Assembly: GCA_951812955.1 (NCBI GenBank)
Contig: OX638340.1
Location: forward strand, 224,001-288,000
From: an uncultured Gemmatimonadota bacterium
GTDB taxonomy: Bacteria; JAAXHH01
DNA: 64,000 nucleotides
Reading direction: 5' to 3'
Shown here: piece by piece, positions 38,888-57,523 of the stretch
Layout: the number at the start of each line of letters is the position of its first letter
Position numbering within the stretch: position 1 is the stretch's first letter
The notes under the pieces: generated by a model
What the model was told of the DNA's origin: nothing
The model's input: the letters and a program-made list of their open reading frames with translations, nothing else
Database searches by the model: none
Position numbers and translations under genes: made by a program

Positions 38888-40204
38888 CTATCCGTCTCCC
38901 GTATCCTGCTCATCCATATCGGCCATCCGATCGATCCTGAGCCGTTGGACACGGGTAGGCAAAACGCGCAGCGCCGTCATCAGATGTGCTCCGGTACGGA
39001 CCTGTTCCCCCTGCTTGGGAATGTGACCCAGCAGTTCGATCATGACCCCGCCCGTGGTATCCGAGGTCAGTTCATCGGGAAGTTGCAGCCCGCAGGCGCG
39101 GATGACCTGGTCGACGGGACAACTGGCTTCGACCTCGAAACGGTGGGGTCCGGTCCGCACGATGAGCGGCGCCTCACTGTCGAATTCGTCTTGAATTGGA
39201 CCTACCAGTTCCTCGAGTACGTTTTCCAATGTAATCATACCGGAAACCGTGCCGAACTCGTCCACCAGGACGGCAAGCATGGTATTTCGGCGCTGGAATT
39301 CCAGGAGCAGCGCGTCCAGCTTGATGGTCTCGGGCAGGAACAACGGATCCCGTGCGATTCCTTCCAGACTGGAGGAGCCCTGTTCGTCGAACAGGATCCG
39401 GAACAGGTCCTTGACGTGTACAATCCCGACGATCTGATCCAGGTCCTCGTCGCACAGCGGGAAACGCGTATGTCCCGATTCGGCTACCACGCGCAGTTTC
39501 GTTTCCCGTTCGTCGTGCTGGTTCAGGTACACGATCTGGTTGCGGGGCAGCATGTAACGGCGCGCGACTTTTTCTTCCAGGTCGAGCACGTTTTCCATGA
39601 TCCTTCGCTCCCGCCTGGTGACGTGGCCTCCGGCTACCATGGTGACCAGGGTCATCCGCAATTCAGGTTCCGTGATGGATTCGCCCTGTTCGTTCATGAT
39701 ACGTATACCCAGGCACCTCAGCATGAGGTTGGCGCTGATGTTCAGCAACCAGATGAATGGCCGGAATATCCGGTAGAAGACGACGAGCGGAATCCCAATG
39801 GCGAGGGCCACCTGCCGGCACTTCTGCAGTGCGACGAACTTGGGGACAAGCTCTCCCGCGGTGATCAGCAGGAAGGTCATGACCGCAAAGGCAACTGGAA
39901 TCGCAATGAGATGGGAGGTCTCCGCGGAGAAACCCAGGGTGATTACGAGCGGTTCGAGCAGCGCGGCCATGGTCCGTTCGCTGAACCAACCGAGACCAAG
40001 GCTGCCGAGCGTGACGCCAAGTTGGCACGAAGAAAGGTAGGTGTCGAGGCTGTACAGGATGTTACGAACGGTCTGCGCGGTTCTGCTGCCGTCCTTCGCC
40101 AGCACTTCGATTTCAGACAGGCGTATCTTCACCAGCGCGAATTCCGCAGCTACGAAGAAGCCGTTGAACGCGACCAGCAGCAGGACGATGATTAGGTCAT
40201 TCAT
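38888..40204 (-). CDS. HlyC/CorC (CNNM) family transporter: DUF21 TM domain, CBS pair, CorC_HlyC C-terminal domain
   Basis: N-terminal DUF21 (LLLVAFNGFFVAAEFALVKIR), a central CBS pair, and a C-terminal transporter-associated domain. Confidence 0.85.
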   Translation of the reverse strand: MNDLIIVLLLVAFNGFFVAAEFALVKIRLSEIEVLAKDGSRTAQTVRNILYSLDTYLSSCQLGVTLGSLGLGWFSERTMAALLEPLVITLGFSAETSHLIAIPVAFAVMTFLLITAGELVPKFVALQKCRQVALAIGIPLVVFYRIFRPFIWLLNISANLMLRCLGIRIMNEQGESITEPELRMTLVTMVAGGHVTRRERRIMENVLDLEEKVARRYMLPRNQIVYLNQHDERETKLRVVAESGHTRFPLCDEDLDQIVGIVHVKDLFRILFDEQGSSSLEGIARDPLFLPETIKLDALLLEFQRRNTMLAVLVDEFGTVSGMITLENVLEELVGPIQDEFDSEAPLIVRTGPHRFEVEASCPVDQVIRACGLQLPDELTSDTTGGVMIELLGHIPKQGEQVRTGAHLMTALRVLPTRVQRLRIDRMADMDEQDTGDG

Positions 40205-40263
40205 GGTTCAGGGGGATGATCGGAGCGTACCCGTCGCGGTTGAAGTTAGTGAACCAGGGGAAT

Positions 40264-40731
40264 TCAGCGAACGGAACCACCGAATTTATCGGTCAGCACT
40301 TCACGACGGTAATCGAAAATCGCGTTGAGCTGGTTCTTGACGATCGCTGCATGTACCATACGGCCCAGGAATCCAAATGGCAAGGCATAATGGATCAGGT
40401 CGACCATTTCCACGCCGTGCTCTGTAGACCGCAATCGGTGTTCATGGTGCCAGAATCTGTATGGTCCGGATCTCTGCTCGTCAATAAAATACCTAAGTGG
40501 TTCTGCCTGAGTAATTTCCGTGACCCAGTTAAAGCAGAACATTTTGTATAGCGCGAGCCTGTAGGTGATGATGAGGCCCGGGTATACGCAGTCGGGCAGT
40601 TCGGAAGTAACGGTCAGTCCGACCCCCGGCGGAGTCAGATTGCGAAGATGCTCGGGGCGGCACAGGAAATCCCAGGCGGCGTCCAGGGATACGGGCAGAA
40701 TCTGCGTACGCTGCAACCGGTAGACATGCAT
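40264..40731 (-). CDS. SRPBCC (START/Bet v1-like, polyketide_cyc2-type) domain protein
   Basis: ~155 aa with a START-like pattern. The ATG at 40731 gives a typical domain-sized product; the upstream-extended ORF is rejected. Confidence 0.55.
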   Translation of the reverse strand: MHVYRLQRTQILPVSLDAAWDFLCRPEHLRNLTPPGVGLTVTSELPDCVYPGLIITYRLALYKMFCFNWVTEITQAEPLRYFIDEQRSGPYRFWHHEHRLRSTEHGVEMVDLIHYALPFGFLGRMVHAAIVKNQLNAIFDYRREVLTDKFGGSVR

Positions 40732-40939
40732 GGAATCCGGATCTCCTGTTCGAATTATCCGACTAACCGGGGTCTGCCCCGTCGCAATGCCGACAGGTGT
40801 GCCCCTCCAGTCCGAAGCCGCTATTCCGGATACTACGGGAATCCTCAATGCGAGTCAATCCACATTGGCCGGGTGGGGGAATCGCGCGTGCGCACCGACC
40901 TTGACATTGCGTGGTCCCGGTCTTAACTTTCGCCACACT

Positions 40940-41848
40940 ATGGTCATACTCGTTACTGGCGGATCGGGGTTGATCGGCCGCCGGCTGATCCCATACCTCG
41001 AGACGCGCGGCCACCGGGTCGTTCGCTTGGTCAGATCCAGAGACAAGGTCGGCGAGAATGCGATCTTCTGGTCCTCCTCCGAAGGCCGCGTTTATTGGGA
41101 CGAATCCGGTGGAATAGACGCCATCGTGCACCTGGCGGGCGAGTCGATCCTGGGCCGATGGACCAGGGCCAAGAAGGCCCGGATACGCGACAGCCGCGTC
41201 GACCCCACCCGCAACCTCTGTGCGTTTCTCGCAGGGATGGAGGCACCGCCCAGGGTCCTGGTGGCCGCGTCGGCCACCGGATTTTACGGCAACCGCGGCA
41301 AAGAACCGCTCGTCGAGGAGTCCCAGTCAGGTAACGGCTTTCTTCCCGGGGTATGCAGGCAGTGGGAAGCGGCGACGGGACCGGCCCGCGACGCAGGGAT
41401 CCGGGTCGCGAATCTGCGCATCGGTATGGTACTGACTCCCGAAGGAGGCGCGCTGGCCGCCATGCGCATGCCCTTCCGGCTGGCGCTGGGCGGAAGAGTC
41501 GGGGACGGTAGACAGTACATGAGCTGGATTACCCGGGACGACCTGGTTGCCGCAATCCGTTTCATCCTGGAATCGGACGAACTGGACGGACCCATAAACG
41601 CCGTTGCCCCCGGGTCCGTTGACAATGCGGAGTTTACGCGGGTTCTGGGTCTTGCGCTGCATCGTCCGACCCCCTTTTCGGTACCCGCCTTCGCAGTCCG
41701 CCTGTTGTTCGGCCAAATGGGAAACGACCTGCTTCTCGCGAGCGCGAAAGTCATACCCGAACGTCTTCAGCAAGCGGGTTTTCAATTCGAGCACGCGGAT
41801 CTGAAGTCTGCGCTGAACGACCTGTTGCAGACGAGACCTTCGACATGA
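40940..41848 (+). CDS. TIGR01777-family (YfcH-like) NAD-dependent epimerase/dehydratase with C-terminal DUF1731
   Basis: N-terminal VTGGSGLIGRRL Rossmann motif; C-terminal region matches the DUF1731 tail (PAFAVRLLFGQMGNDLLLASAKVIPERLQQAGFQF). A TTGACA-17-TAACTT element lies at 40901-40929. Confidence 0.75.
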   Translation: MVILVTGGSGLIGRRLIPYLETRGHRVVRLVRSRDKVGENAIFWSSSEGRVYWDESGGIDAIVHLAGESILGRWTRAKKARIRDSRVDPTRNLCAFLAGMEAPPRVLVAASATGFYGNRGKEPLVEESQSGNGFLPGVCRQWEAATGPARDAGIRVANLRIGMVLTPEGGALAAMRMPFRLALGGRVGDGRQYMSWITRDDLVAAIRFILESDELDGPINAVAPGSVDNAEFTRVLGLALHRPTPFSVPAFAVRLLFGQMGNDLLLASAKVIPERLQQAGFQFEHADLKSALNDLLQTRPST

Positions 41849-41909
41849 ACAGGAAGGACCGGTTCTCCACGAATGCGGCGCCTCATGCCGCGTCGATCCC
41901 TATGCAACG

Positions 41910-43528
41910 ATGGTCATGAACTCCGATAACCCGCATCAGCCGGCACAAACAAGGCCATCAGCTTCGGGTGGATTCCTGGACGCCATAGAGCGGATCGGAA
42001 ATCGCCTGCCTGACCCCACGACGCTCTTCCTGGTCGGTGCACTGTTCATCGTCTTCCTCTCAGACATCGCGGCCCGCGGGGAGTGGACCGTAGTGCAGCG
42101 CCTGCCGGAACAGGTTATCCTGCAAGATGGATCGGCCGGTGTGGCGTGGCGCGAGACCGGGGAGACCTTCACGTCCACCAGCCTGCTCACCCGGGACGGG
42201 CTCTTCTGGGTCGTCGGCAACATGGTTGAGAATTTCATGCGCTTCCCGCCCCTCGGCGTTGTCCTCGTGGGCATGCTGGGCATCGGAGTGGCGGAACGGA
42301 CGGGGATGATCGCCACCGTGCTCAAGGCGTTCATGCTGGCGGTCCCGGGGAGGTTGCTGACTCCGGCCATGGTCTTCATCGGAATTATGTCGTCCCTTAC
42401 ACTGGACGCCGGATACGTCATACTTCCGCCCCTCGCGGCGGCGCTGTACAAGGCCGTGGGCCGGTCTCCGCTGGCCGGACTGGCCGCCGTATTCGCCGGC
42501 GTATCCGCGGGATTCAACGCCAATCTGTTCGTGACCGGGCTGGACCCCCTCCTGGCCGGTCTGTCCACGGCCGGGGCACAGACGATCGACGCGGCATACC
42601 AGGTTGCCGCCACGTGCAACTGGTATTTCATGATTGCGTCGACAGTAGTCATGACGCTGGTAGGGTGGCTCGTTACGGCCTGGTTCGTCGAAAGGCGCCT
42701 GGCGGGCAAGTCACCCGAGGAAGGCGGTCCGGCGCCCGCGACGTCGGCCGGACCGGAAGAACACGCTATGACGGCGGTGGAGAAGCGGGGCATGGTCCGG
42801 GCGTCCCTGGCGTTCTGCGTGGTGCTTTCGGCCATCGTGTTCCTGATTCTGTGGCCGGGCGCACCGCTGTACGGGACGGGCAGGTTGTTCGACCGCTGGG
42901 TGGAGGCCATCGTGCCCCTGCTTCTTTTCTGCTTCATCCTGCCCGGCATCGTGTATGGCATCTCGGTGGGCGCCATTAAGAACGACAAGGATGCGGCCCG
43001 CCTGCTCATAGAAACGATCGCCACCATGGCCCCGATCATCGTGCTTGCCTTCTTCGCCGCCCAGTTCATCGCCTACTTCCAGTATTCGGGTCTGGGCCGG
43101 ATGCTGGCGATGGCTGGCGGCCAGGCCCTCGGCCAGGCGCAGATGCCGGCGTGGATGCTGATCATCGCCTTCATCCTGGTCACCCTGGTGTTCAACCTGC
43201 TCATCGGGTCCATGTCGGCCAAGTACGCGCTCTTCGCGCCAATCTTCATACCCATGTTCATGATGGTGGGCATAAGCCCCGAACTGACGCAGGCGGCCTA
43301 CCGGATCGGCGACTCCGTGAGCAACACCATCACGCCGCTGAATCCCTACCTGGTGATCATCCTGGTCTTCATGCGCCAGTTTGTGCCCAGGGGGGCATGG
43401 GCACGCTGATTTCCACGATGCTCCCCTATACCGTGGTGTTTGCCGTCATCTGGACCCTTGTCCTCGTGATCTGGATGGCGATGGGCATCCCCCTCGGGCC
43501 GGCGGGCGGCCTGGTCTATGTCCCCTGA
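41910..43528 (+). CDS. AbgT-family (p-aminobenzoyl-glutamate-type) transporter with an apparent 1-nt deletion in a G6 run (43390-43395), which makes it a pseudogene or a homopolymer sequencing error
   Basis: Frame 0 (41910-43409) reads ...IILVFMRQFVPRG and then stops. The conserved AbgT C-terminus GMGTLISTMLPYTVVFAVIW... continues in a second frame up to 43528. One extra G would restore ...FVPRGGMGTLIS... Confidence 0.7.
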
Positions 43529-43594
43529 ACAGGCGTATACGTCGGATTTTAGGCGCCGTTCGAGCGCTGAACGGCCGTTGAGGCAGCGTGATGG

Positions 43595-45019
43595 TCACGG
43601 ATTTTCTGTCTTCGCCGCCGCATTCGAGCGCCGGCGCAGGTACAGGTAGGCAGGGATGCCGAGGGCAATCAGGGCGAGGCCCGATATGGACTCAACGGGG
43701 GTTTCGAAGAGCATGTTGGCGAGAATGCCGGCGGAACCGGCGATGAACAGCAGGGGAACGGCCGGGTAGCCCCAGGCTTTGTAGGGCCTGGGCAGGTCGG
43801 GCTGTTTCCTGCGCAGGGTGAATACCGCGGCCGCCCCGGCGATCCACAGCATGAGATTGGCGAAGGTGACAAAGGTAATCAGGTCTTCGAACGTACCGCT
43901 GAGGGTGAGCACGCATGCCCATGCGGCCTGAAAAATCACTGCCTGACCCGGTGTGCGGTACCTCGGATGTACCGTGCCCGCCCGTTTGAAGAACAGCCCG
44001 TCCCGCGCCATGGCGAAATAGACACGGGGTCCCACCAGGATGCTGGCGTTCAGCGCGCCGACGATGGACACGATGACGGCAGCCGAGATCAGTACGGCGC
44101 CCGTTTCTCCGAAGAGGGCGTTGGCAGCCACTTCACCGACCCGGACGATCCCGGCCATTTCCCCTACCGGCATGGCCTTCAGGTAGATGTAGTTCACCAG
44201 CAGATAGACCACGGTGACGCTCGCGGTGCCCACGACGAGAGCCCGGGGCAGGTTTCGCGCCGGGTCCCTGACCTCTCCCGCTACGAAGGTAACTTCCTCC
44301 CATCCGGCGAAGGCCCAGGCGACGGCGATAAGGGCGACGCCGAAAGCGACCACCAGTTGCCCGAAGTCAATATCCTGCGGGTTGATCCTGAAGTCGATGG
44401 GCTGTGTGGACCCGCTCCAGAGTCCGAACAGGATGAACAAACCGAGCGCGGCGACCTTGATCACCGAGGACACGTTGGTGATGTGCTTGCTGAAGGTGAC
44501 GCCCCGGTAATTTACGACCGTAAGCAGGACGACCAGGGCCAGTGCCGTGACGTGGCCGGCGGAAAGGGAATACTGAAACGTCCAGCCTGGAAGGGCGATT
44601 TCGGTTTCGAAGAATACGTTGGCCATCCCGAAGGAGGGGATGAAGTACCCGGCGTATTCTGCGAATCCCACGGCGAGCGCGGCGATGATTCCGGTCAGGT
44701 ACATGGTGAAGGACACCCAGCCGAAGAGGAATCCGCAGAACGGACCGTAAGCTTCCCGGAGATATACGTACTGGCCGCCGGCCCTGGGCATGGCGGCTCC
44801 GAGCTCGGAGTAGGCCAGCGCGCCGGCGAGGGCGTGCAGTCCGCCGAACAGCCAGGCAAGGAGTATGAGCGAGGCCGAGGGTATGCCCCGGGCCATCAGG
44901 CCGGTGGTGAGGAAAATCCCCGAACCGATCACGATGCCGATAATGATCATCGTGGTGTCGAAAAGACCGAGCTGGCGGACCAGGCCAGTCTTTTCTTTTT
45001 GATCGCTCGGAATTGCCAT
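43595..45019 (-). CDS. APC-superfamily amino acid/polyamine permease
   Basis: 12-TM protein with the APC N-terminal signature (TTMIIIGIVIGSGIF) and an overall amino-acid permease pattern. Confidence 0.8.
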   Translation of the reverse strand: MAIPSDQKEKTGLVRQLGLFDTTMIIIGIVIGSGIFLTTGLMARGIPSASLILLAWLFGGLHALAGALAYSELGAAMPRAGGQYVYLREAYGPFCGFLFGWVSFTMYLTGIIAALAVGFAEYAGYFIPSFGMANVFFETEIALPGWTFQYSLSAGHVTALALVVLLTVVNYRGVTFSKHITNVSSVIKVAALGLFILFGLWSGSTQPIDFRINPQDIDFGQLVVAFGVALIAVAWAFAGWEEVTFVAGEVRDPARNLPRALVVGTASVTVVYLLVNYIYLKAMPVGEMAGIVRVGEVAANALFGETGAVLISAAVIVSIVGALNASILVGPRVYFAMARDGLFFKRAGTVHPRYRTPGQAVIFQAAWACVLTLSGTFEDLITFVTFANLMLWIAGAAAVFTLRRKQPDLPRPYKAWGYPAVPLLFIAGSAGILANMLFETPVESISGLALIALGIPAYLYLRRRSNAAAKTENP

Positions 45020-45057
45020 ATATTGAGAATAGGGGACGTTCCGCGGGGTGGCCGCAC

Positions 45058-45969
45058 ATGGATGCGATCACGGCCCAGGCGGGCATATGGAAGTGGAAAG
45101 CGAACCTCCATGTTACGGGGACGGTTCGCCTAAGTCAAGGTGGGATTGCTGCAGGAAGGAAACCTCGATTGAACGATACGGCGCTGGACCTCATCGACTC
45201 GACGACCTACCCCATTCACCGGCCAGGATCGGCCACGTACAGCGCACTTGTCGCAAGGTGCAGGGATGATCTGGCGGACCGAAGCGCCTGCCTGTTGCCC
45301 GGATTCGTCACGGAGGAGGCCAGGGTACGGATGGTGGCCGAGGTGGACCGTGCCGCGCCCAGCGCTTTTCCTTGCCGGAACGCCCATAACGTATACCTCG
45401 AGGAGCACGACGGCGCCTTTCCGCCCGACCACCCCCGGCGAAGGCTCCAGGCAACGGACCTGGACTCGGTCGCCTTCGATCAGATGCGTCCCACAGACGG
45501 TCTGCACCAGTTGTATTCCTGGGATCCGCTCCTTTCCTTCATAGCCGACGTCCTCAACAAGGAACACTATTACAGGATGGCCGACCCCTTTGCCGCGCTG
45601 ACGGTTAACGTCATGCGAGAGGGACAGAACCACGGCTGGCATTTCGACGAGTCCGAGGCTACGACTACCCTGATGGTACAGGCGCCCGAAGAAGGCGGCG
45701 CATTTGAGTACGCACCGAACGTCCGTCCGGAGGAAGGCGGGTCATACGATACCGTGGAACGGGTGCTGCGCGGCAGCTATCCGGACGTACGTACACTCGC
45801 CGTGAAGCCCGGTACGCTGATCCTCTTCGTCGGCTACCATTCCATGCACCAGGTGACACCGGTCAAGGGTCCGGTTACCCGGTATGTCGCCACGCTCTGC
45901 TATAAGGACCGGCCCAATGTCTGCAACAGCCCCGAGGTACAGAAGCTGTTCTACGGTCGGACGGCATGA
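45058..45969 (+). CDS. putative Fe(II)/2-oxoglutarate-dependent oxygenase-like protein (cupin/DSBH fold), family unassigned
   Basis: Candidate facial triad HxD...H (HGWHFDESE ... VGYHSMHQV) with a downstream Arg (VTRYVATL). No closer family could be assigned by eye. Confidence 0.4.
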   Translation: MDAITAQAGIWKWKANLHVTGTVRLSQGGIAAGRKPRLNDTALDLIDSTTYPIHRPGSATYSALVARCRDDLADRSACLLPGFVTEEARVRMVAEVDRAAPSAFPCRNAHNVYLEEHDGAFPPDHPRRRLQATDLDSVAFDQMRPTDGLHQLYSWDPLLSFIADVLNKEHYYRMADPFAALTVNVMREGQNHGWHFDESEATTTLMVQAPEEGGAFEYAPNVRPEEGGSYDTVERVLRGSYPDVRTLAVKPGTLILFVGYHSMHQVTPVKGPVTRYVATLCYKDRPNVCNSPEVQKLFYGRTA

Positions 45970-46032
45970 CGAAGGGAGTTTACGGGAAGAAGGTCGTTTT
46001 TGGAGATCGCTCAAGGACCAGGAGGTGGACCA

Positions 46033-47307
46033 TTGCACGCAGTGATCATTGGGAACGGCGTAACAGGGGTAACAGCCGCCACGCGGCTCCGGCAGCTTCA
46101 GCCCGACTGGAAGGTCACGCTGGTATCGGGTGAATCGGCCTTCCACTATTCCCGCCCCGCACTCATGTACATCTTCATGGGGCACATGACCTACGAGGCG
46201 ACGAAACCCTTCGAGGACAGTTTCTGGCGAGACCAGCGGCTGGACCTGGTCCGAGACTGGGTCACCGCCATCGATATCGACGACAGGCAACTGGTTCTAC
46301 ACCGGAACGGACGCCTGCCCTACGACCGTCTGCTGATCGCCACCGGCGCCAAATCGAACAAGTTCGGATGGCCGGGCCAGGACCTCGATGGCGTCCAGGG
46401 CCTGTACAACCTGAAAGACCTGCATCAACTGTATAAAAACGCCGAACGGGCCAGTCACGCGGTCATCGTCGGCGGCGGGCTGATCGGCATCGAACTCGCC
46501 GAGATGCTGCATTCGAGGCATATCCACGTCACGTTTCTCATACGCGAGCCCTCCTACTGGCGCAACATCCTGCCCATGGAAGAATCGGGCATGCTGAACC
46601 GGCTGATCGAGGAGCAGGGCATCGGCCTGATCAAGGAGACCAACCTGAAGGAAATCGTGGACGACGGCACAGGAAAGGTCGAAGCGGTCATTACCGAGTT
46701 CGACGACCGGATCGACTGCCAGCTGGTCGGTCTGACGCCGGGTGTTTCGCCCAACACGGACCTGGTCAAGTCGACGCCCATCGAAACGGGGCGGGGCGTC
46801 CTGGTCGACAACGCGTTCCGTACGAACATACCCGACATCTACGCCGCCGGGGACTGTGCGGAAATCGTCAGCCGGAACGGGGGACGCAACCTGATCCAGC
46901 AGGTCTGGTACACGGGCAAGAAGCAGGGCAAGGTCGCCGGTGAGGTGCTGGCCGGACAGGATACGGAGTACGACCCTGGGATCTGGTACAATTCGGCCAA
47001 GTTCTTCGACCTGGAGTACCAGACCTACGGCATGATTCTGAATACGCCCCAGCCCGGAGAGCGCCACCTTTTCTGGGAACATCCATCCCATCGCCACGCC
47101 GTCCGCATCGTCGGCGTCGACGGGTGCATCAAGGCATTCAATTTCATGGGGATCAGGGCCCGCCACGAAGTATGTGAGCGGTGGATTGCCGAGCGGCGTA
47201 CCGTGGAGTACGTCCTGGACCACCTGGAAGAAGCCAACTTCGATCCGGAGTTTTTCGTCCGCCACGAGTCGGAGATCGTTCGCTCATTAAAGGAGCAACT
47301 CGCATGA
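46033..47307 (+). CDS. FAD/NAD(P)-binding pyridine nucleotide-disulfide oxidoreductase family reductase (ferredoxin/rubredoxin-reductase-like, with no redox-active CxxxxC pair)
   Basis: Two Rossmann motifs (AVIIGNGVTGVTAA and AVIVGGGLIGIELAE) and a C-terminal dimerisation-like domain. The TTG at 46033 is preceded by AGGAGGTG at a 5-nt spacing. Confidence 0.75.
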   Translation: MHAVIIGNGVTGVTAATRLRQLQPDWKVTLVSGESAFHYSRPALMYIFMGHMTYEATKPFEDSFWRDQRLDLVRDWVTAIDIDDRQLVLHRNGRLPYDRLLIATGAKSNKFGWPGQDLDGVQGLYNLKDLHQLYKNAERASHAVIVGGGLIGIELAEMLHSRHIHVTFLIREPSYWRNILPMEESGMLNRLIEEQGIGLIKETNLKEIVDDGTGKVEAVITEFDDRIDCQLVGLTPGVSPNTDLVKSTPIETGRGVLVDNAFRTNIPDIYAAGDCAEIVSRNGGRNLIQQVWYTGKKQGKVAGEVLAGQDTEYDPGIWYNSAKFFDLEYQTYGMILNTPQPGERHLFWEHPSHRHAVRIVGVDGCIKAFNFMGIRARHEVCERWIAERRTVEYVLDHLEEANFDPEFFVRHESEIVRSLKEQLA

Positions 47308-48758
47308 GCACACCGCCCGCTGCACCGACGTTGATCGATCCGGAATCCATTTCGTACTTCTACGACGAGGAGGCCGAAGGGTTCGGCGAGCCCGAGTCCG
47401 CGGCGGAGGCGCCCAGGAACCCGGGCATGATGGTCTCCGCCGGCGTGATCGGGCTGGGTTTCCTCGCGCTCGTCGTATCCCTGCTCGGTATGCCGCTCTC
47501 AGGCGCCTGGACGCCCTTCCTGCTGTCCTTCGGCCTGCTGTCTGCCGGAACCATCGGTTACGTCTGGTTCACGTACAGGGACACGGTGCCCGGTATCAAG
47601 CACGACGGCATCATGTTCGGAAACACGACACACCGCGGCGCCATCGCCTGGGCGCTGGGCATCGCGCTCACCGGGTTCTACGTCGTACTGTACTGGTGGC
47701 CCGAATACCTGTCGCGTGCCATCGCGCTCGTTGAGCCGCTGTCGCAGGTCCTGGCGGGGCAGCCGGCGAACCAGTGGTTTCTATACGGGTTTCTCTACAC
47801 GATGGCCGTGGTGCTCTTCGGATTCCGCATGTTCATGCGTTACCGCCACAACCGTTATCACATCATCCGAACGATTTCGGTCATGTTCTTTCAACTGGTC
47901 CTGGCCTTCGTCCTTCCCCAGTTCCTCCGCGCGCTGAACGAACCGGAGTTCTACTTCAGCTACTTCTGGCCCCTGAAGTACGACTACCTGTTCCCCGGTA
48001 CCGTGGATTACCTGGTCAACAGCCCGGGCGCCCTGGGTTCGTTCATGGTGTTCTGGGGGGTGGCCTGCACGTTTATCGCCACGCCCGTGCTGACCTATTT
48101 CTACGGCAAGCGGTGGTACTGTTCCTGGGTATGCGGCTGCGGCGGGCTCGCCGAAACCCTCGGCGACCCCTGGCGGCACCTGACGCCCAAATCGACCGTA
48201 TCGTGGAAAATCGAACGGGCGATCATTTACGCGGTGCTCCTGCTCATCATCGCGACGACGGCCGTGCTCTGGGTGAGCAGCACGTCCGAAGGCGCGCTGA
48301 GCGCCATTTCCGCTCCGTTGAAACAGTGGTACGGTTTCTACATCGGCGCGGTCTTCGCCGGGGTCATCGGAGTAGGGTTCTATCCCATACTCGGCAATCG
48401 GGTCTGGTGCCGCTTCGGGTGCCCGATGGCCGCGGTGCTGGGCATCATCCAGCGCTTCTTCTCCCGGTTCCGAATCACAACCAACGGCGGGCAGTGCATG
48501 TCCTGCGGTAACTGCACGACCTATTGCGAAATGGGCATCGACGTGCGGGCCTATGCGGAGCGCGGCGAGAATATCGTCCGGTCTTCCTGCGTGGGATGCG
48601 GGGTCTGTTCGGCCGTGTGTCCCCGGGGCGTGCTCAAGCTCGAGAACGGCATGTCCCACGGAGACCGCTACCCGGGGTCCGACAAACCGCTGAGCGCTTT
48701 CTCCGAGGCCGTCAGCAAGGGCGCCAGGGTCTACGGCGACCGCGATGGCTACGTATAG
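47304..48758 (+). CDS. NapH/MauN-like membrane-bound polyferredoxin (multi-TM, CxxxCP motifs plus two C-terminal 4Fe-4S clusters)
   Basis: About 8 predicted TM helices. Cytoplasmic motifs are CSWVCGCGG and CRFGCP (NapH-type Cx3CP). C-terminal CMSCGNCTTYCEM and CVGCGVCSAVCP are 4Fe-4S ferredoxin signatures. Its ATG overlaps the stop of the upstream reductase (ATGA) and is preceded by AAGGAG. Confidence 0.75.
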   Translation: MSTPPAAPTLIDPESISYFYDEEAEGFGEPESAAEAPRNPGMMVSAGVIGLGFLALVVSLLGMPLSGAWTPFLLSFGLLSAGTIGYVWFTYRDTVPGIKHDGIMFGNTTHRGAIAWALGIALTGFYVVLYWWPEYLSRAIALVEPLSQVLAGQPANQWFLYGFLYTMAVVLFGFRMFMRYRHNRYHIIRTISVMFFQLVLAFVLPQFLRALNEPEFYFSYFWPLKYDYLFPGTVDYLVNSPGALGSFMVFWGVACTFIATPVLTYFYGKRWYCSWVCGCGGLAETLGDPWRHLTPKSTVSWKIERAIIYAVLLLIIATTAVLWVSSTSEGALSAISAPLKQWYGFYIGAVFAGVIGVGFYPILGNRVWCRFGCPMAAVLGIIQRFFSRFRITTNGGQCMSCGNCTTYCEMGIDVRAYAERGENIVRSSCVGCGVCSAVCPRGVLKLENGMSHGDRYPGSDKPLSAFSEAVSKGARVYGDRDGYV

Positions 48759-48767
48759 TGGCCTTGC

Positions 48768-48790
48768 AGTACAGGGCGCCACCCTGTACT
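48768..48790. terminator. perfect 9-bp stem / 5-nt loop hairpin (agtacaggg-cgcca-ccctgtact) between convergent genes
   Basis: Read from the sequence, between the polyferredoxin stop (48758) and the AEC permease stop (48789-48791). Confidence 0.4.
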
Positions 48791-49694
48791 ACCTGACCAG
48801 GAAAATAACCACCGCGACCGTGACGATGCTGCAGATGGTGGACAGGAACACGGCGTTGGCCGCGAAATCCTCCCGGCTGCCGAATTCCATCGCGATCAGC
48901 ACGGTATTGATCGCGGTTGGATAACTGGTGGATACAACCAGGATCGGGGCGATTCTGGGATCGATGTCCAGCAGGAGCACGAGGCCGTAGCCGATCAGGG
49001 GAGAGACCAGCAGACGGCAGACCAGGGACGCCAGGCTGGCTTTCCACTCCAGCGTGATGGGGGTCCGGGCCAGCTGCATGCCCAGGGTGACCAGAGCCAT
49101 GGGAACGAGCGCTTCGGCCAGGTACTCGATCGGAAGCCAGATAAAGCCCGGGAGCTGCAGGCCGTAGTTCCGGATCGCGAAGGCCAGGATCAGCGCATAG
49201 ACGAATGGCATCTTGAAGGACTGCAGGAAGGCTCTCCGGGCGGACAGGCGTCCAATCGAAACGAAGAACAACCCCAGGGTGAAAACCAGAAAGTTCTGGA
49301 CGGCCAGGACGATGGACTGGACGGCCAGGCCCAGGGAGGGAAAAGACAGTTCACTGGCCGGAAAGCCGTAATTCCCGCTGTTGTAATACATGACGGACAG
49401 GCTGAAGGCCTGTTTCATGTCATTCCGGTACCGCATGACCAGGGATCCGATCACACTGAGCACGTAAAGCGCGACCAGCATGAGCAGGCAGAATACGGCG
49501 GTGTCCCATACGAATTCGGAGGAAAGCTCAGACTGGGTGAGGGATACGACGAGCGTAGCGGGCATGACTAGGTACAGCAGTATCCGCGTCAGGGCCTGCA
49601 GGTCGAACCGCCATTTTTTCTGGAACAGGTACCCGAGCGAAATGAGAACGAAAATCGGGGCGATGATGTCGATCAGGATGTTCAGAAATGGCAT
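48789..49694 (-). CDS. AEC-family (auxin efflux carrier / malate-permease-like) transporter
   Basis: 10-TM membrane protein with an AEC N-terminus (MPFLNILIDIIAPIFVLISLGYL) and an internally repeated architecture. Confidence 0.75.
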   Translation of the reverse strand: MPFLNILIDIIAPIFVLISLGYLFQKKWRFDLQALTRILLYLVMPATLVVSLTQSELSSEFVWDTAVFCLLMLVALYVLSVIGSLVMRYRNDMKQAFSLSVMYYNSGNYGFPASELSFPSLGLAVQSIVLAVQNFLVFTLGLFFVSIGRLSARRAFLQSFKMPFVYALILAFAIRNYGLQLPGFIWLPIEYLAEALVPMALVTLGMQLARTPITLEWKASLASLVCRLLVSPLIGYGLVLLLDIDPRIAPILVVSTSYPTAINTVLIAMEFGSREDFAANAVFLSTICSIVTVAVVIFLVR

Positions 49695-49755
49695 CGGATC
49701 GCCAGGGAAGGGGTCAGGACAGGTTAAGGTGGAGAGCTCGCGCCGATGTCAGCTT

Positions 49756-50538
49756 TCACGCAAAAGGATCGAAGCGGCCGTCCGCCGCCGTCCACCCCCC
49801 GTCGACGAACATGACGGAACCCGTGGTGTATGAGCTGGCGTCAGAGGCCAGGTAGAGGACGGCCCCCGCGATTTCCTCCGGTTTGGCCCATCGCCGGAGC
49901 ATGGTCTTGTCGGCGTATGCGCCGTACCAGTCCGGCTGCCGTTTGATCTGGGCCGTCAGCGGCGTATCCACGACGCCGGGGGCGATTGCGTTGGCCCGTA
50001 CGCCCTTGTCGGCGAGTTCGGCCGCCAACGCGCGGATCATGAGGACCACGCCGGACTTGGTCGCTGCGTAGACGCCCTGTCCGGGCTCCACCACCTGGGA
50101 CCGGATACTCGAGAAAACGATGATGCTGCCTCCGCCGTTTTCAGACATGGACCGTGCAGTTTCACGTACGAGGCGGAAGGTTCCCTTCAGGTTGAGATCG
50201 ACGACCCGGTCGTATTCCTCGTCCGTGTAGTCGAGAAGCTTTTTTCGAATGTTGACGCCAGGCGTGCTGACGAGGGCGTCGGGGGGAGAAATCCGATCAA
50301 GCACCTGCTGGATCTGTCCGGTATCCCGCATATCGAGCGCGACCGCTTCGGCCGATTCACCGTGTGCGCGAATCTCGTCGGATACGGAGTCCGCCGCCTC
50401 CTCCCGCACGTCCGCGCAGACCACGTGTGCGCCGAACTGGGCGAGGCACATGGCAGAGCACCGGCCGATGCCGCTGCCGGCGCCGACGACCAGCGCGTTT
50501 CGGCCCGTCATATCGAAGAGGTTCTTGTAGTCGGCCAT
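49756..50538 (-). CDS. SDR-family short-chain dehydrogenase/reductase
   Basis: TGxxxGIG motif (VVGAGSGIGR), the NAG region, and the catalytic YxxxK (VYAATKSGV). Confidence 0.85.
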   Translation of the reverse strand: MADYKNLFDMTGRNALVVGAGSGIGRCSAMCLAQFGAHVVCADVREEAADSVSDEIRAHGESAEAVALDMRDTGQIQQVLDRISPPDALVSTPGVNIRKKLLDYTDEEYDRVVDLNLKGTFRLVRETARSMSENGGGSIIVFSSIRSQVVEPGQGVYAATKSGVVLMIRALAAELADKGVRANAIAPGVVDTPLTAQIKRQPDWYGAYADKTMLRRWAKPEEIAGAVLYLASDASSYTTGSVMFVDGGWTAADGRFDPFA

Positions 50539-50753
50539 GTAGGGTCTCGGGTTATCGATGATTACGTCCTGCCGTGCGTCATGTTGGCCGGTCGATCCGG
50601 GATCCGGTGGACCAGCGGAACGGCCACTATCTTAGAGTGAGGGTCCGCCCCTGTCAAGAGGTTCGGTCCCGAACGGGTTGGGCGTTTAGTGTCGAATGAA
50701 GCAAGTATGCTCCAATGGAACCAGGGGCACGGAACTGCCTGGGGAGGAAGGTA

Positions 50754-51644
50754 ATGACCGGGAAAACGCTCATTGTCGCGAATCCGAAATCGGGGTGCGG
50801 GCGTGGCGTGACCTACGCGGAGCGGGTACGGGAATTGTTGGCTGCGAACCAGGTGTCCGCCGAAATCCGCCACACATCGACCCGGGGCGAGGCGGAGACC
50901 ATCGCGGCGGAAGCCGTGCGCACCGGGTATTCCTGCGTCGCCGCGTGCGGCGGCGACGGGACCGTGCACGAAGTAGTGAACGCACTGGCTGGAACGGATG
51001 TCAACCTCTGCATCCTTCCCTGCGGGCGCGGAAACGATTTCGCCCGGGCGATCGGTATCCCTGCCTCACCCGAAAAGGCGGCATCCATTCTACTTCAGAG
51101 CCATGTCAGGCCCTTCGACCTGGGAAAGGTGAACAACCGGTACTTCGCGACAGTGGTGACGCTGGGATTCGATTCGGAGGTGGCCAGGCTGGTCTATGAC
51201 GGCGAAGTGCCGCTCAAGGGCATGGCAGCCTACCTCTGGGGCCTGGCGCGTATGCTGCGTATTTACCGGGGCGTGGATCTGCGCATGTCCGGCGATTTCG
51301 GTACGATTAATCAAACGGTCCTGCTGGCGGCCACCGGGAACACCAGCACTTACGGCGGCGGGATAAAGATCGTGCCGAATGCCAGTCCGACGGACGGGGA
51401 ACTCGATGTCTGCCTCGTGCGCATGATGAGCCCGAGCCGTGTCCTGCGCATATTTCCAAGGGTCTACTGGGGCGGCCACCTGAATCACCCCAGCATCTTC
51501 TCGTACAGGACGGGTAGTTTGAAAATGGAAACGGAACAGCCGGTTGTGCTGTTCGCCGACGGCGAACCCATTGGCGAGACGCCCGCGGAGATCAGGTCCG
51601 CGCCCGGCGCGCTGCGGGTAGTGTGCCCGGACCCTGCGGCCTGA
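50754..51644 (+). CDS. diacylglycerol-kinase-family lipid kinase (YegS/DagK-like)
   Basis: DAGK_cat N-terminus (KTLIVANPKSGCGRG) and the GGDGT motif (VAACGGDGTVHEV). ATG 50754 is preceded by GGAGGAAGG. Confidence 0.8.
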   Translation: MTGKTLIVANPKSGCGRGVTYAERVRELLAANQVSAEIRHTSTRGEAETIAAEAVRTGYSCVAACGGDGTVHEVVNALAGTDVNLCILPCGRGNDFARAIGIPASPEKAASILLQSHVRPFDLGKVNNRYFATVVTLGFDSEVARLVYDGEVPLKGMAAYLWGLARMLRIYRGVDLRMSGDFGTINQTVLLAATGNTSTYGGGIKIVPNASPTDGELDVCLVRMMSPSRVLRIFPRVYWGGHLNHPSIFSYRTGSLKMETEQPVVLFADGEPIGETPAEIRSAPGALRVVCPDPAA

Positions 51645-51667
51645 ACGGCGTACTGGATTCTACTGCG

Positions 51668-53311
51668 TTATTTCCGGCTTTTGTATAGCCGTGAATACAT
51701 GAGGCCGCCTACGGTGCCGTCGGGGTACCTGGTATAACCCTTCAGGTTCGATTTGCGAAGCTGCATCGTGAGGGGATGGAACACGAAGGCGGCGGCGTAG
51801 TCCCCCACGAGAATCTCCTCCGCCTGCCTGTAGAGACTCGTGCGCCTTACCGGGTCCAGTTCCGCACCGGCGCTTTCCACCAGCGCATCGAATTCGGAAT
51901 CCGCCCAGTCGTGCCGCCCCGCGCCTTTCGGCTGGGAGTGCCAGGTCATGTCGAGCATGTTGCGGGGGTCCATGTAATCGGCGACGAACCGCAGAAAGCC
52001 GAAGTCCATTTCCCAGTTGTACAGTTTGCTCATGTAGGCCGTCCGGTCCAGGGTCCGGATGGAGACTTTAACCCCGAGGTGCTCCAGCAGCATGCTCTGA
52101 ATAGCGACGCCCGCCATCTGCATGGAAGGCGTCGGCGCCCGAATCCACATTTCCTGCCTGGGAAACCCTCTTCCGTTCGGATAGCCGGCCTCCCGCATCA
52201 GCGTTTTCGCCCGCTCGGGATCGAAAGCCTGGTACGGTTTCATGGCATCGCCGTTGTACTCCTTGAAGTCCGGGGGCATCATGGAATAGGCCGGTGCAGC
52301 AGCCCCTCTCAGGACCACCTGGCTGATAGCCTCCCTATTCAGCGCACGTGCAAAGGCCTCCCTTACTCGTATGTCATTGAAGGGCGGATCGGACGTGTTG
52401 AAGAACAGGTACCAGGTCGTTCTTCCGGGAGATCTGACGAGTTCCCGGCTGAGCACCGGGTGCCGTTCGATTCGATCCAGGTCGTTGATGTCTACCGTTT
52501 CCACGTCCACTTCGTTGTTTTCGTAGGCCAGGACGGTCTGCGCCGCCGCGTAGCGGAAGGGATGAATGACCTTCTCCAGCAAAGGTTTGTGGGGACCGTT
52601 GTACATGGGATCGGGCACGAAGGTCATGTGGCTGCCGGTCGCCCATTCGGCCATCCGGAAGCCGGAATTCGACACGATGTTTTCGACTTCGGTCCATCTC
52701 CGGCCATGTTTCTCGACGGCCCATCGCGGCGTGGGGTACGCCAGGCCGAAGGACACGACGTGGGGAAAATGGGGCGCGCCGCGCTCCAGAAGCACCTGCA
52801 GCGTTAGATCGTCCACGGCCCTGACGCCCAGTTGAGCCAGATCCTCGATATCTCCGAGACTGATTTCCTTCGCGTTCATGATGTCATAATAGAAGAAGGC
52901 GTAGGGATTGGCGTTGGCGGGATCGAGCATGCGTCTGAAAGCGTAGACGAAATCGTGGGCCGTAACGGGCCTGCCATCGTTCCAACGCGCGCCGGGACGC
53001 AGATGGAACGTCCATTCCCGGGCGTCGTCGGAGACGTCGTAACCGGTGGCGGCGGCCGGGATGGGCTGCCACAACTCGTCTCTGATGAGCAGGGTCTCGA
53101 AGGGCAGCAGCGTGGACTCGCCGTCGTACAGGTTGATCTGGATGTCGAGGCTGCGCGGTTCGGGACTCATCACGCGGAAAACCTGCTGGTCCGGCGGCGC
53201 CGCGTCGGCGGGCAAGGCGACACCGACCGAATTGGAGTGTTGACCATGGATAAGACAAGCCGGCGACAGAGTAGCCGCGGCCAGAAGCAAGACGGAGCGT
53301 ATCCTGAACAT
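51668..53311 (-). CDS. ABC-transporter family-5 substrate-binding protein, orphan copy 3
   Basis: Signal or lipoprotein-like N-terminus (MFRIRSVLLLAAATLSPAC). About 60% identical over long stretches to copy 1 (for example WTFHLRPGARWNDGRPVTAHDFVYAFRR versus WTFHLRPGARWSDGRPVTAHDFVYTFRR). Confidence 0.8.
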   Translation of the reverse strand: MFRIRSVLLLAAATLSPACLIHGQHSNSVGVALPADAAPPDQQVFRVMSPEPRSLDIQINLYDGESTLLPFETLLIRDELWQPIPAAATGYDVSDDAREWTFHLRPGARWNDGRPVTAHDFVYAFRRMLDPANANPYAFFYYDIMNAKEISLGDIEDLAQLGVRAVDDLTLQVLLERGAPHFPHVVSFGLAYPTPRWAVEKHGRRWTEVENIVSNSGFRMAEWATGSHMTFVPDPMYNGPHKPLLEKVIHPFRYAAAQTVLAYENNEVDVETVDINDLDRIERHPVLSRELVRSPGRTTWYLFFNTSDPPFNDIRVREAFARALNREAISQVVLRGAAAPAYSMMPPDFKEYNGDAMKPYQAFDPERAKTLMREAGYPNGRGFPRQEMWIRAPTPSMQMAGVAIQSMLLEHLGVKVSIRTLDRTAYMSKLYNWEMDFGFLRFVADYMDPRNMLDMTWHSQPKGAGRHDWADSEFDALVESAGAELDPVRRTSLYRQAEEILVGDYAAAFVFHPLTMQLRKSNLKGYTRYPDGTVGGLMYSRLYKSRK

Positions 53312-56122: not shown

Positions 56123-57523
56123 ATGGTGGACAGATCCTTCCTGTTCGATGACGACGCCATGCGCGACTTTATCGTAAACGGCTACCACGTGATCAACGTG
56201 GATCAGCCGGTTGCGCTCCACGACGGGATTTACGAGAAGACGAAGGCGATCATCGACGATGACGGGAATCCGGGAAACAACCTGTTGCCGCGTGTGCCCG
56301 AGATCCAACAGGTCTACGACGATCCTGCTGTTCAAGGCGCACTGACGAGCCTGCTCGGACCGGACTACGTCATGCACGCTCACCGCCACCCGCACGTAAA
56401 CCCGCCGAACAGCCGTGGAGGCAGCTGGCACAAGGACAGTTACTGGGGTTACACCAAGGTGCGGGATCACCATCCGCGGTGGATCATGGCCATGTACTAC
56501 CCCCAGGACACCCCGGTTGAAATCGGACCGACGGGGGTAATACCCGGCAGCCACTACTTCGAGTCCCGCGAAGAGACCGTAGGAGGGAACGGGTCGGTCC
56601 CAGATGGATTCCCCGCGAGCGGCAAGGCGGGAACCATTACCATCATACACTTCGACCTCTGGCACCGGGCGTTTCCGAACGCAACGGACAAGGTCCGCTA
56701 TATGATGAAATTCCAGTTTACGAGAATGTCAGAGCCGAACCGCCCCTGCTGGAACAATCAACGAGATGAAATCGACCTGGGCGACCTGTCGGACGATCCC
56801 CGGAGCGCCATGTGGCGGAACATGTGGCACTGGCTTGCCGGAAACGGCTCGGCGGGAGCCAGGCGGGAAGGCGAGGAACACGTCGAGGCGCTTGCCCGGG
56901 ACCTGACGCATGAACTCGAACAGAAGCGTTTGCACGCGGCCTATAACCTGGCCGAGTGCGGAGAATCCGCGCTTCCGCATTTCCTCGAAGCACTGCAACA
57001 CGAAAGGGATGAAGTCCGGCGTGAAGCGTGTTATGGACTAAGCGCGCTGGGTACCGCCGCCGTAGATCCGTTGGTCTCTCTGCTCGGACACGAGAACGAA
57101 CGCGTCAGGGGATACGCGGTTTACGCCCTTGGAGACATCCGGCACCACAACCCATCGGTTACGGGGCACCTCGCGGGTCATACAGACGACCCATCGCCTT
57201 TTGTCCGGCAGAACGTGGCCGATGCACTGGGCCAGATCAGGCTGGCTGCGGATTCGTCCGTTCCCGCGCTGATCGGTATGATGAAGGACGAGGATGAGCA
57301 GGTTCGGTCCAGAACCGCCTATGCGCTGGCCCGATTCGGAGTCGAGGCTCAGACGGCCGTTCAAGACCTTGCGGATGCGTGCTACGATGAAAACCGGTAT
57401 GTACAGGGGCATGCCGCCGTTGCCCTCGAACAGATCGGCACGCCAGAAGCCCTGCGCACGCTGCTGCACTGGCTGCAGGCCTCGCGGTGGTGTCCACTGA
57501 CGACGGCGAAGAGCACGTTTTAG
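56123..57523 (+). CDS. PhyH-like Fe(II)/2OG dioxygenase domain fused to a C-terminal HEAT (PBS-lyase-type) repeat domain
   Basis: N-terminal ~230 aa carry a PhyH-type facial triad (HKDSY ... HFDLWHRAF). The C-terminal ~200 aa contain at least five ~31-aa HEAT-like repeats (for example DEVRREACYGLSALG, NERVRGYAVYALGDI, SPFVRQNVADALGQI, DEQVRSRTAYALARFG, NRYVQGHAAVALEQIG). Confidence 0.7.
   Translation: MVDRSFLFDDDAMRDFIVNGYHVINVDQPVALHDGIYEKTKAIIDDDGNPGNNLLPRVPEIQQVYDDPAVQGALTSLLGPDYVMHAHRHPHVNPPNSRGGSWHKDSYWGYTKVRDHHPRWIMAMYYPQDTPVEIGPTGVIPGSHYFESREETVGGNGSVPDGFPASGKAGTITIIHFDLWHRAFPNATDKVRYMMKFQFTRMSEPNRPCWNNQRDEIDLGDLSDDPRSAMWRNMWHWLAGNGSAGARREGEEHVEALARDLTHELEQKRLHAAYNLAECGESALPHFLEALQHERDEVRREACYGLSALGTAAVDPLVSLLGHENERVRGYAVYALGDIRHHNPSVTGHLAGHTDDPSPFVRQNVADALGQIRLAADSSVPALIGMMKDEDEQVRSRTAYALARFGVEAQTAVQDLADACYDENRYVQGHAAVALEQIGTPEALRTLLHWLQASRWCPLTTAKSTF

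Follow-up and report, generated by a model that had tools for sequence, protein, structure and literature searches.

What do three codirectional genes of an uncultured Gemmatimonadota bacterium encode, and do their products work together? The question is raised by a 64,000-nucleotide stretch of DNA from assembly GCA_951812955.1 (contig OX638340.1, positions 224,001 to 288,000 of the forward strand), which we call the window and in whose coordinates all positions are given. Between 43.6 and 49.7 kb the window carries five genes: an APC-family amino-acid permease on the reverse strand, genes A, B and C on the forward strand, and an AEC permease on the reverse strand (Table 1). An earlier note on this DNA, made from the sequence alone, described A as an oxygenase-like protein, B as a flavoprotein reductase and C as a membrane polyferredoxin, and proposed that the three form one redox module served by both permeases. 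Here, we describe a comparative and structural analysis that favors a different answer, to which we give a probability of roughly 0.6: two independent units lie side by side, B and C being a self-contained, membrane-anchored Fe-S reductase, and the APC permease and A an import and hydroxylation unit.

The case for B and C as a pair begins with synteny. C was found in 80 genomes, one locus each, and at 77 of these loci B lies immediately upstream in the same orientation; at the other three, the contig ends within 120 nt. The loci represent at least 12 phylum-level lineages, including Gemmatimonadota, Latescibacterota, Thermodesulfobacteriota, Dadabacteria, Planctomycetota, Calditrichia, Ignavibacteria, Kapaibacteria, Rhodothermales, Bacteroidota and Myxococcota, and among the carriers are the cultured Pedobacter glucosidilyticus DSM 23534, Daejeonella rubra DSM 24536 and Pontibacter sp. 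FD36. Across phyla C is 52-78% identical, and searching with it returned 255 representative clusters at E<=1e-30 and more than 8000 clusters at 90% identity. At the 67 junctions analyzed, the two genes overlap by 4 nt in 15 cases and are separated by 0-30 nt in 30. The signals of translational coupling that the earlier note had reported, an ATGA overlap and an AAGGAG ribosome-binding site (RBS), are both present in the window. The apparent co-evolution of B and C (Pearson r 0.78; Spearman 0.23, p 0.06) is driven by close relatives and was not used as evidence. One locus (L065), labelled Candidatus Paceibacteria, carries a Planctomycetota-like pair (B 59% and C 54% identity), and its assignment to the Candidate Phyla Radiation is probably a binning error.

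The association between the two proteins also takes the form of gene fusion. About 25 of the top 150 distant C representatives are single polypeptides of 670-900 amino acids (aa). In each of the seven long relatives that were tested, a Pyr_redox_3/Pyr_redox_2 flavoprotein occupies the N-terminus and is joined to the same polyferredoxin core, which has only about five transmembrane (TM) helices (P0293, P0303, P0309, P0321, P0325, P0342 and P0367; loci L172-L175). These proteins share the signature ...C(T/S)W(I/A)CGCGGLAETLGD... and retain ...CxWxCGCGGLAETLGD... and WCR(Y/F)xCP. Their flavoprotein domain is 27% identical to B over 128 residues (E 0.009) and is not orthologous to it, so a flavoprotein has been attached to this polyferredoxin independently at least two times. 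Residues Q197, P223-L224, C273, C277, C369, C373-P374 and the cluster cysteines are invariant in the two-gene and fused forms alike, and C279 is nearly so. The fused genes lie among unrelated or housekeeping genes, in one case after the Maf-YggS-DivIVA-YggU cell-division genes, and loci of the Dadabacteria type show a B-C-PriA-GlnE housekeeping synteny. The idea of a membrane-anchored, NAD(P)H-driven electron-delivery pair, already put forward in the earlier note, is supported by the 77 of 80 pairings and by the fusions.

Gene A keeps different company. Its loci were collected by scanning metagenomes with an alignment of A homologs, followed by tblastn with the window proteins. Where A is at least 57% identical, a divergent APC permease stands next to it in 10 of 10 loci and B lies downstream in 7 of 10; at 44-57% identity, the permease is present in 25 of 25 and B in none of 30; below 44%, the corresponding figures are 2 of 28 and 0 of 23. 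Put together, all 35 loci with at least 44% identity have the permease immediately upstream of A in divergent orientation, and B follows A in none of the 53 loci below 57%. Among the 80 genomes carrying C, A adjoins B-C in three, all of them close Gemmatimonadota relatives, and the APC permease does likewise; a further Gemmatimonadota genome, with a C of 72% identity, has neither of them beside it. Marinimicrobia loci have the APC permease, A and a PhyH oxygenase without B-C. The AEC permease borders C in five close Gemmatimonadota relatives (L001, L002, L003, L008 and L127) and at no other locus. Both flanking permeases exist as the earlier note described them, APC upstream and divergent, AEC downstream and convergent; the roles given to them, uptake and export for a common module, do not hold up. 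Judged by these neighborhoods, the APC permease is the conserved partner of A rather than a part of the B-C pair, and the AEC permease is lineage synteny and part of neither unit.

The earlier note could place the product of A in no nameable family. It scores 52.5 bits against Pfam HalD (PF23169), passing the gathering threshold of 26, and when its AlphaFold model (predicted local distance difference test, pLDDT, 94.8) was compared with the PDB using Foldseek, the top 41 matches were all HalB, HalA, BesD, HalD or a BesD hydroxylase homolog (E 1e-16 to 1e-11, TM-score 0.62-0.76), with 13-17% identity to solved BesD-family members. The model thus places A in the BesD/HalD family with a double-stranded beta-helix fold, the fold that the earlier note had suspected and had proposed checking with Foldseek; a protein lacking any metal-binding fold would have detached A from the proposed module, and what we find is a BesD-type fold with an invariant ligand motif. 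The HxD...H triad that had been pointed out is there as W-H195-x-D197...H264...R275, invariant in 61 homologs and encoded at 45640-45648 (H195-x-D197), 45847-45849 (H264) and 45880-45882 (R275). In the BesD-family halogenases, the carboxylate ligand is replaced by Gly or Ala (HxG/A), which opens a halide site. A shares the fold, the two histidine metal ligands and the Arg that binds 2-oxoglutarate with BesD, HalA, HalB and HalD, and differs in its Asp and in forming a distinct clade tied to an APC permease. A halogenase was considered and rejected, the Asp being present in the window and invariant in the 61 homologs; because HxD keeps this residue, A is predicted to be a hydroxylase. Its partnership with an amino-acid permease in 35 of 35 loci suggests that it acts on a free amino acid. 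Since Fe(II)/2-oxoglutarate oxygenases draw their electrons from 2-oxoglutarate as co-reductant, A has no mechanistic need for a reductase. The permease-hydroxylase pair would represent a new clade of BesD-type amino-acid hydroxylases, of interest for biocatalysis.

In the Marinimicrobia loci L083 and L084 (8001-9613), the gene after the A homolog encodes a PhyH-family oxygenase and overlaps it by 4 nt; the surrounding genes encode a hydantoinase/oxoprolinase, an amidohydrolase and an M20 peptidase. This neighborhood suggests an amino-acid catabolic context for the hydroxylase clade.

Turning to the flavoprotein, B matches Pyr_redox as well as Pyr_redox_2 (2e-17 and 4e-48) and has two conserved Rossmann motifs, GNGVTG (46051-46068) and GGGLIG (46471-46488). 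It has no redox-active Cys and no CxxxxC pair, the only conserved cysteines being C240 and C286 (in GDCA), which agrees with the earlier description of a reductase with two Rossmann folds and no redox-active disulfide. Ser51, in a conserved SRxALMY, presumably stands where CoADR/Npx enzymes would have their active-site Cys, a position read from the motif rather than from an alignment. The best PDB match is AorC (8c0z_E, 2e-34), annotated as the ferredoxin:NADH-oxidoreductase-like subunit of an aldehyde oxidoreductase; we take it to be an FAD (flavin adenine dinucleotide) subunit that docks on a polyferredoxin subunit and exchanges electrons with its [4Fe-4S] chain. Further solved relatives are the NADH oxidase/nitrite reductase 1xhc and rubredoxin or ferredoxin reductases. 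B therefore resembles AorC-AorA (8c0z) and PdR, BphA4, RubB/AlkT and NorW in having two Rossmann domains without an active-site disulfide, and belongs to the ferredoxin/rubredoxin-NAD(P)+ reductase class. Unlike in AorC-AorA and the ferredoxin/rubredoxin reductases, the Fe-S partner of B is an integral membrane protein. B also falls below the cutoff of each curated equivalog it was compared with (HcaD, NorW, AndAa and others): it scores 118-149 bits against cutoffs of 392-650, the best being 149 bits against 579.

Glu183 ends the second Rossmann beta-strand, and for this reason we judge NADH more likely than NADPH to be the donor. In nine loci (L023, L027, L028, L038, L058, L060, L068, L072 and L076), eight of them of Rhodothermales type and one a Bacteroidetes-labelled metagenome-assembled genome (MAG), the gene immediately before B-C, in divergent orientation, encodes an NAD kinase; this may be lineage synteny or a hint of NADPH use.

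For C, the AlphaFold model (pLDDT 71.6, predicted TM-score 0.75) shows eight long helices followed by a ferredoxin domain, in line with the roughly eight TM helices counted in the earlier note, and the CSWVCGCGG, CRFGCP and two C-terminal 4Fe-4S motifs listed there were all found. All 13 cysteines are invariant in 47 homologs, as are many membrane residues, and Fer4_21, Fer4_9 and Fer4_10 match residues 393-447 with all eight cluster cysteines among the invariant ones. By the positive-inside rule, the N-terminus, both cysteine motifs and the ferredoxin domain would be cytoplasmic. The predicted outer face lacks any conserved Cys, His or Met, the protein has no paired histidines for heme, and Pfam finds no FMN_bind or FixG_C domain in the protein. 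A variant of C (P0219 and similar proteins, 580-640 aa) is extended at its N-terminus by about 170 residues, which follow a signal-anchor-like helix and in which Pfam finds no domain.

The resemblance to NapH suggested in the earlier note is weak yet real. C matches TIGR02163 (NapH/MauN) at 2.8e-15 with 56.5 bits against a cutoff of 213.05, scores 55.7 bits against 234 for the NapH equivalog NF007013 and 17.9 against 1000 for NosR NF046105, and is 24% identical to Escherichia coli NapH (E 2e-9) over C residues 262-455, from the first cysteine motif through to the end. In this alignment, GKRWYCSWVCGCGG of C lies opposite GKRLFCSWVCPLNP and WCRFGCP opposite WCGHICP, making motif 1 of C the counterpart of the first CX3CP of NapH (CSWVCP), with the Pro replaced and an extra Cys added. 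Because the alignment starts at the first cysteine motif, the C subfamily appears to be a NapH-superfamily core with four extra N-terminal helices and an altered, three-Cys first motif.

How, then, does the pair relate to known systems? The C-terminal 225 or so residues of C are homologous to E. coli NapH, of the NapH/NosH/MauN group (TIGR02163, COG0348), and the two proteins have a common plan: a TM helix, C-S-W-V-C, two TM helices, W-C-x-x-x-C-P and a cytoplasmic domain with two [4Fe-4S] clusters. NapH/MauN has four TM helices and two CX3CP motifs, whereas C has eight helices and a first motif of the form CX3CGCGG, with three Cys and no Pro. The partner of NapH is the periplasmic NapG; that of C is a cytoplasmic FAD/NAD(P)H reductase, and there is no nap, nos or mau context. 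NosR/NirI has an N-terminal periplasmic domain that binds flavin mononucleotide, for which C has no FMN_bind match. CcoG/FixG/RdxA and E. coli YccM are, like C, membrane proteins of COG0348 that carry two [4Fe-4S] clusters and have their cysteine motifs on the cytoplasmic side; CcoG/FixG has in addition a periplasmic Ig-like FixG_C domain and a ccoGHIS/cbb3 context, and C has neither. CcoG is described as a cupric reductase, Cu(II) being reduced without a protein acceptor, and its physiological electron donor as not known (PMC7558416). Unlike CcoG, C has a dedicated donor encoded next door or fused to it.

Tblastn with E. coli NapA, NapB, NapC, NapF and NapG gave nothing at E<1e-4 in the window and about 88 loci, and the earlier statement that no terminal enzyme stands beside the pair agrees with the lack of NapA, NapG, NapB and NapC homologs near it in any locus. 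By membership tests, B-C falls outside NapH/MauN, NosR, CcoG and every curated reductase equivalog. Among curated family models we found none that describes the pair, and in the literature on polyferredoxin/NapH-like proteins, COG0348, DUF547 and arsenosugar clusters we found no paper that does, in keeping with the earlier note, which was aware of no described system with this composition. B-C is therefore a highly conserved two-component membrane oxidoreductase for which we found no curated family and no published function. By analogy, it would work like a ferredoxin reductase coupled to a polyferredoxin of the NapH/CcoG type, building on electron-transfer modules already known. The NapH/CcoG class would thereby gain a defined physiological electron donor, which CcoG is not known to have.

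In the two-unit reading, the most economical path starts with soluble B, which would take a hydride from NAD(P)H onto its FAD, dock on the cytoplasmic two-[4Fe-4S] domain of C and pass single electrons along the clusters. These electrons would reach the invariant five-Cys center formed by CX3CGC and CX3CP at the inner face of the eight-helix domain, which would either carry an additional Fe-S cluster or offer its thiolates to a thiophilic substrate. The acceptor reduced at this point would be a small one, in or at the membrane, and not a dedicated protein partner. CcoG, the cupric reductase, is built on the same plan and offers a precedent for a small thiophilic substrate at such a site. Separately, the APC permease would import a free amino acid and A would hydroxylate it.

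The best lead to the acceptor comes from the genes around B-C in other genomes. Neighbors were taken from called genes and cluster hidden Markov models and clustered across loci. No large recurrent neighbor cluster emerged, and no recurrent cco neighbors. The context that does recur, in Bacteroidota and several other lineages, consists of DUF547, glycosyltransferases and secreted MsrA: a DUF547 protein with a signal peptide, encoded immediately before B in 16 of 80 loci, a 499-aa membrane family 2 glycosyltransferase (GT2) next to the pair in 28 of 80, a 232-aa Dpm1/AglJ-like GT2 in 27 of 80, an MptA/B-like GT-C in about 20 loci and also in L007, L165 and L168, and a secreted MsrA or MsrBA in the clusters of about eight.

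Seven of the 80 loci have B-C within or next to ars genes, and at least five different arrangements occur among them; a rough calculation for a cluster present once in a 4-Mb genome puts the number expected by chance at about 0.4 loci. The arsenosugar genes concerned (ArsS TIGR04167, ArsM NF038099, TIGR04282 and TIGR04283) adjoin B-C in L080, L041, L019, L018, L030, L055 and L070. ArsM and PHO4 directly follow C in L019 (Ignavibacteria), and ArsS or TIGR04282 is near B-C in L018, L030, L055 and L070. The largest example, L080 (2403-15658, a Bacteroidota MAG; L041 is similar), is a codirectional cluster of at least 13 genes in the order ArsS, fatty-acid hydroxylase, TIGR04282, purine-nucleoside phosphorylase, PHO4, DUF547, TIGR04283, B, C, GT2 (499 aa), ArsM, MsrBA and AhpC/TSA redoxin. 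The hydroxylase is OlsE-like, PHO4 is a phosphate and possibly arsenate transporter, and ArsM scores 573 bits against a cutoff of 400 for NF038099, 'arsenosugar biosynthesis arsenite methyltransferase'. By its gene content, the cluster looks like an extended arsenosugar or arsenolipid pathway of a kind that we have not seen described; the known system, as curated, includes neither B nor C.

For the acceptor, our leading but tentative guess is that CcoG-like reductase chemistry serves an arsenosugar/glycolipid pathway, for example by reducing arsenic species or pathway thiols. A narrower proposal, that B-C is a dedicated reductase of organoarsenical (arsenosugar or arsenolipid) biosynthesis, in which CX3CGC would bind arsenic and methylarsenicals or ArsM thiols would be kept reduced for ArsM and ArsS, we consider unlikely. 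Its repeated occurrence in ArsS/ArsM clusters makes the pair a testable candidate for a redox step of arsenosugar or arsenolipid biosynthesis.

A number of observations weigh against the reading set out above. The 64-kb window contains no arsenosugar, DUF547 or glycosyltransferase genes of this kind, about 50 of the 80 loci have no informative neighbor and most B-C loci have no ars genes within 10 kb. The ArsS reaction has been reported to be redox-neutral (PMC13598754), so it is not evident why the pathway should need a reductase. Signal peptides are present on DUF547 and on the MsrA proteins of the clusters, whereas the redox centers of B-C are predicted to be cytoplasmic. Confidence in the C model is moderate overall and its cysteine-motif and ferredoxin regions have a pLDDT of 45-63; among solved structures, none resembles its membrane core or gives the geometry of the five-Cys center. 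Finally, A and B are separated by about 63 nt with no predicted terminator between them, and the A-B-C adjacency is kept in a contig labelled Zixibacteria. The short gap makes co-transcription of A with B-C possible in this organism; we take it as incidental.

The alternative that survives best, which we regard as possible if doubtful and nearly as likely as the arsenosugar/glycolipid acceptor, concerns the acceptor itself: B-C could be an alternative NAD(P)H:quinone oxidoreductase in which electrons run from FAD through the Fe-S clusters to a quinone in the eight-helix domain. NapGH acts as a quinol dehydrogenase, and the proposed reaction would be the reverse of the role ascribed to NapH and NosH; the homology of C residues 262-455 to NapH speaks for it, as do the invariance of Q197, W-P223-L224, Y165 and Y360 in the membrane domain of both two-gene and fused forms and the fact that the pair is self-contained, widespread, highly conserved and often found among housekeeping genes. 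Such a function would leave unexplained why B-C recurrently clusters with ArsS, ArsM, DUF547 and glycosyltransferases and why the subfamily has its specific extra cysteine in CX3CGC, and the C model has no structural match.

The secreted neighbors raise another alternative, namely that B-C is a transmembrane conduit which, in the manner of DsbD/CcdA with thioredoxin reductase, carries electrons from NAD(P)H to periplasmic DUF547, secreted MsrA/MsrB or a TlpA-like redoxin. The DUF547 genes upstream of B, the Msr genes and the AhpC/TSA redoxin of L080 all fit this idea, DUF547 is fused to glutaredoxin in plants (PMC13621322), and C shows strong conservation in its outer loop around W222-P223-L224. 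Against the idea, the predicted outer face has, as described above, no conserved Cys, His or Met, and there are no heme His pairs; all five motif cysteines follow positively charged cytoplasmic boundaries, and the DUF547 and Msr neighbors are mostly confined to Bacteroidota. We judge a conduit of this kind improbable.

The single module of the earlier note, in which the reductase and polyferredoxin serve the oxygenase while APC imports and AEC exports, draws on the layout of the window itself, where the three genes are, as had been stated, codirectional, and also close and free of a predicted terminator. A-B-C adjacency holds in the 7 of 10 loci with A at least 57% identical, the Zixibacteria-labelled contig included. 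In one relative a single gene call (P0192, 416 aa) combines a Pyr_redox_2 domain with the C-terminal half of an A homolog (76% identity); it probably reflects a frameshift or read-through where A meets B and not a genuine fusion. Against this stand the absence of A beside C in 77 of 80 genomes and of B beside A in 53 of 53 loci below 57% identity, the pairing of A with the APC permease even where there is no B-C, the restriction of AEC to a close lineage and the use of 2-oxoglutarate as co-reductant by enzymes of this type. The comparative data largely refute the model, and we give it very little credence.

Least credible of all, and rejected, is the idea that B-C assists some known respiratory system whose genes lie elsewhere, be it Nap, Nos, Mau or the assembly of a cbb3 oxidase. 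The weak family similarity of C to the NapH/MauN, NosR and CcoG class speaks for it; against it stand family scores far below their cutoffs (56 against 213, 56 against 234 and 18 against 1000), the lack of FMN_bind and FixG_C in C, of NapA, NapG, NapB or NapC within 10 kb of any copy and of a large recurrent neighbor cluster.

The features of the interval are collected in Table 1. Two of the start codons given there were chosen over longer open reading frames (ORFs). The frame of A is open from an ATG at 45058; its start is probably the TTG at 45169, because homologs are mostly 266 aa long and a GGAAGG RBS (45154-45159) precedes this codon. For B, open from a TTG at 46000, homolog lengths (421-428 aa) and an AGGAGG RBS at 46020-46025 likewise favor the second TTG as the probable start.

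Table 1. Genes and motifs of the A-B-C interval, in window coordinates
Feature	Position	Strand	Basis
APC-family amino-acid permease	43595..45019	-	AA_permease_2 4.7e-57, TIGR00909 6e-72
Gene A, predicted BesD/HalD-family Fe(II)/2-oxoglutarate oxygenase, hydroxylase type (probable start)	45169..45969	+	Pfam HalD PF23169, Foldseek
Gene B, predicted ferredoxin/rubredoxin-reductase-type FAD/NAD(P)H oxidoreductase (probable start)	46033..47307	+	Pyr_redox_2 4e-48
B/C junction	47290..47307	+	AAGGAG RBS 47290-47295, ATGA 47304-47307, read from the sequence
Gene C, predicted 8-TM polyferredoxin of the NapH/CcoG superfamily, cytoplasmic 2x[4Fe-4S] domain	47304..48758	+	Fer4_5 and dicluster Fer4 domains
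C cysteine motif 1, C273-S-W-V-C277-G-C279-G-G (residues 273-281)	48120..48146	+	Invariant in 47 homologs
C cysteine motif 2, C369-R-F-G-C373-P374, canonical CX3CP	48408..48425	+	Invariant; aligned to NapH WCGHICP
Two [4Fe-4S] ferredoxin motifs of C, C398/401/404/408 and C429/432/435/439	48495..48623	+	Fer4_21, Fer4_9, Fer4_10
AEC/Mem_trans permease, convergent neighbor of C	48789..49694	-	Mem_trans 2.6e-27

Promoter and terminator scans of the region gave matches not above shuffled expectation, and an Rfam search of 40000-52000 gave no match. Proteins with 100% identity to C and to the product of A are encoded, respectively, on contig JAPOOT010000318, from a Gemmatimonadota metagenome-assembled lineage, and on a contig of 3.8 Mb.

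Elsewhere in the window, three further observations were made. A 466-aa protein encoded at 56123-57523 on the forward strand combines a PhyH-type 2-oxoglutarate/Fe oxygenase domain with C-terminal HEAT repeats, an unusual architecture. On the reverse strand, about 12 kb from B-C, the ORF at 61071-62351 encodes the TPP_enzyme_C and POR domains of a 2-oxoacid:ferredoxin oxidoreductase and is overlapped by the ORF at 62333-63466, on the same strand. The AbgT-family transporter gene at 41910-43528 on the forward strand has an apparent frameshift in a run of six G residues (43386-43391): its ORF ends in FVPRGAWAR and a stop at 43409, and the next frame carries a normal C-terminus, GGMGTLISTMLPYTV...LVYVP, up to the stop at 43528. 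In the relatives L002 and L008 the gene is in a single frame at this point, and the frameshift is either a sequencing or assembly error or the mark of a pseudogene.

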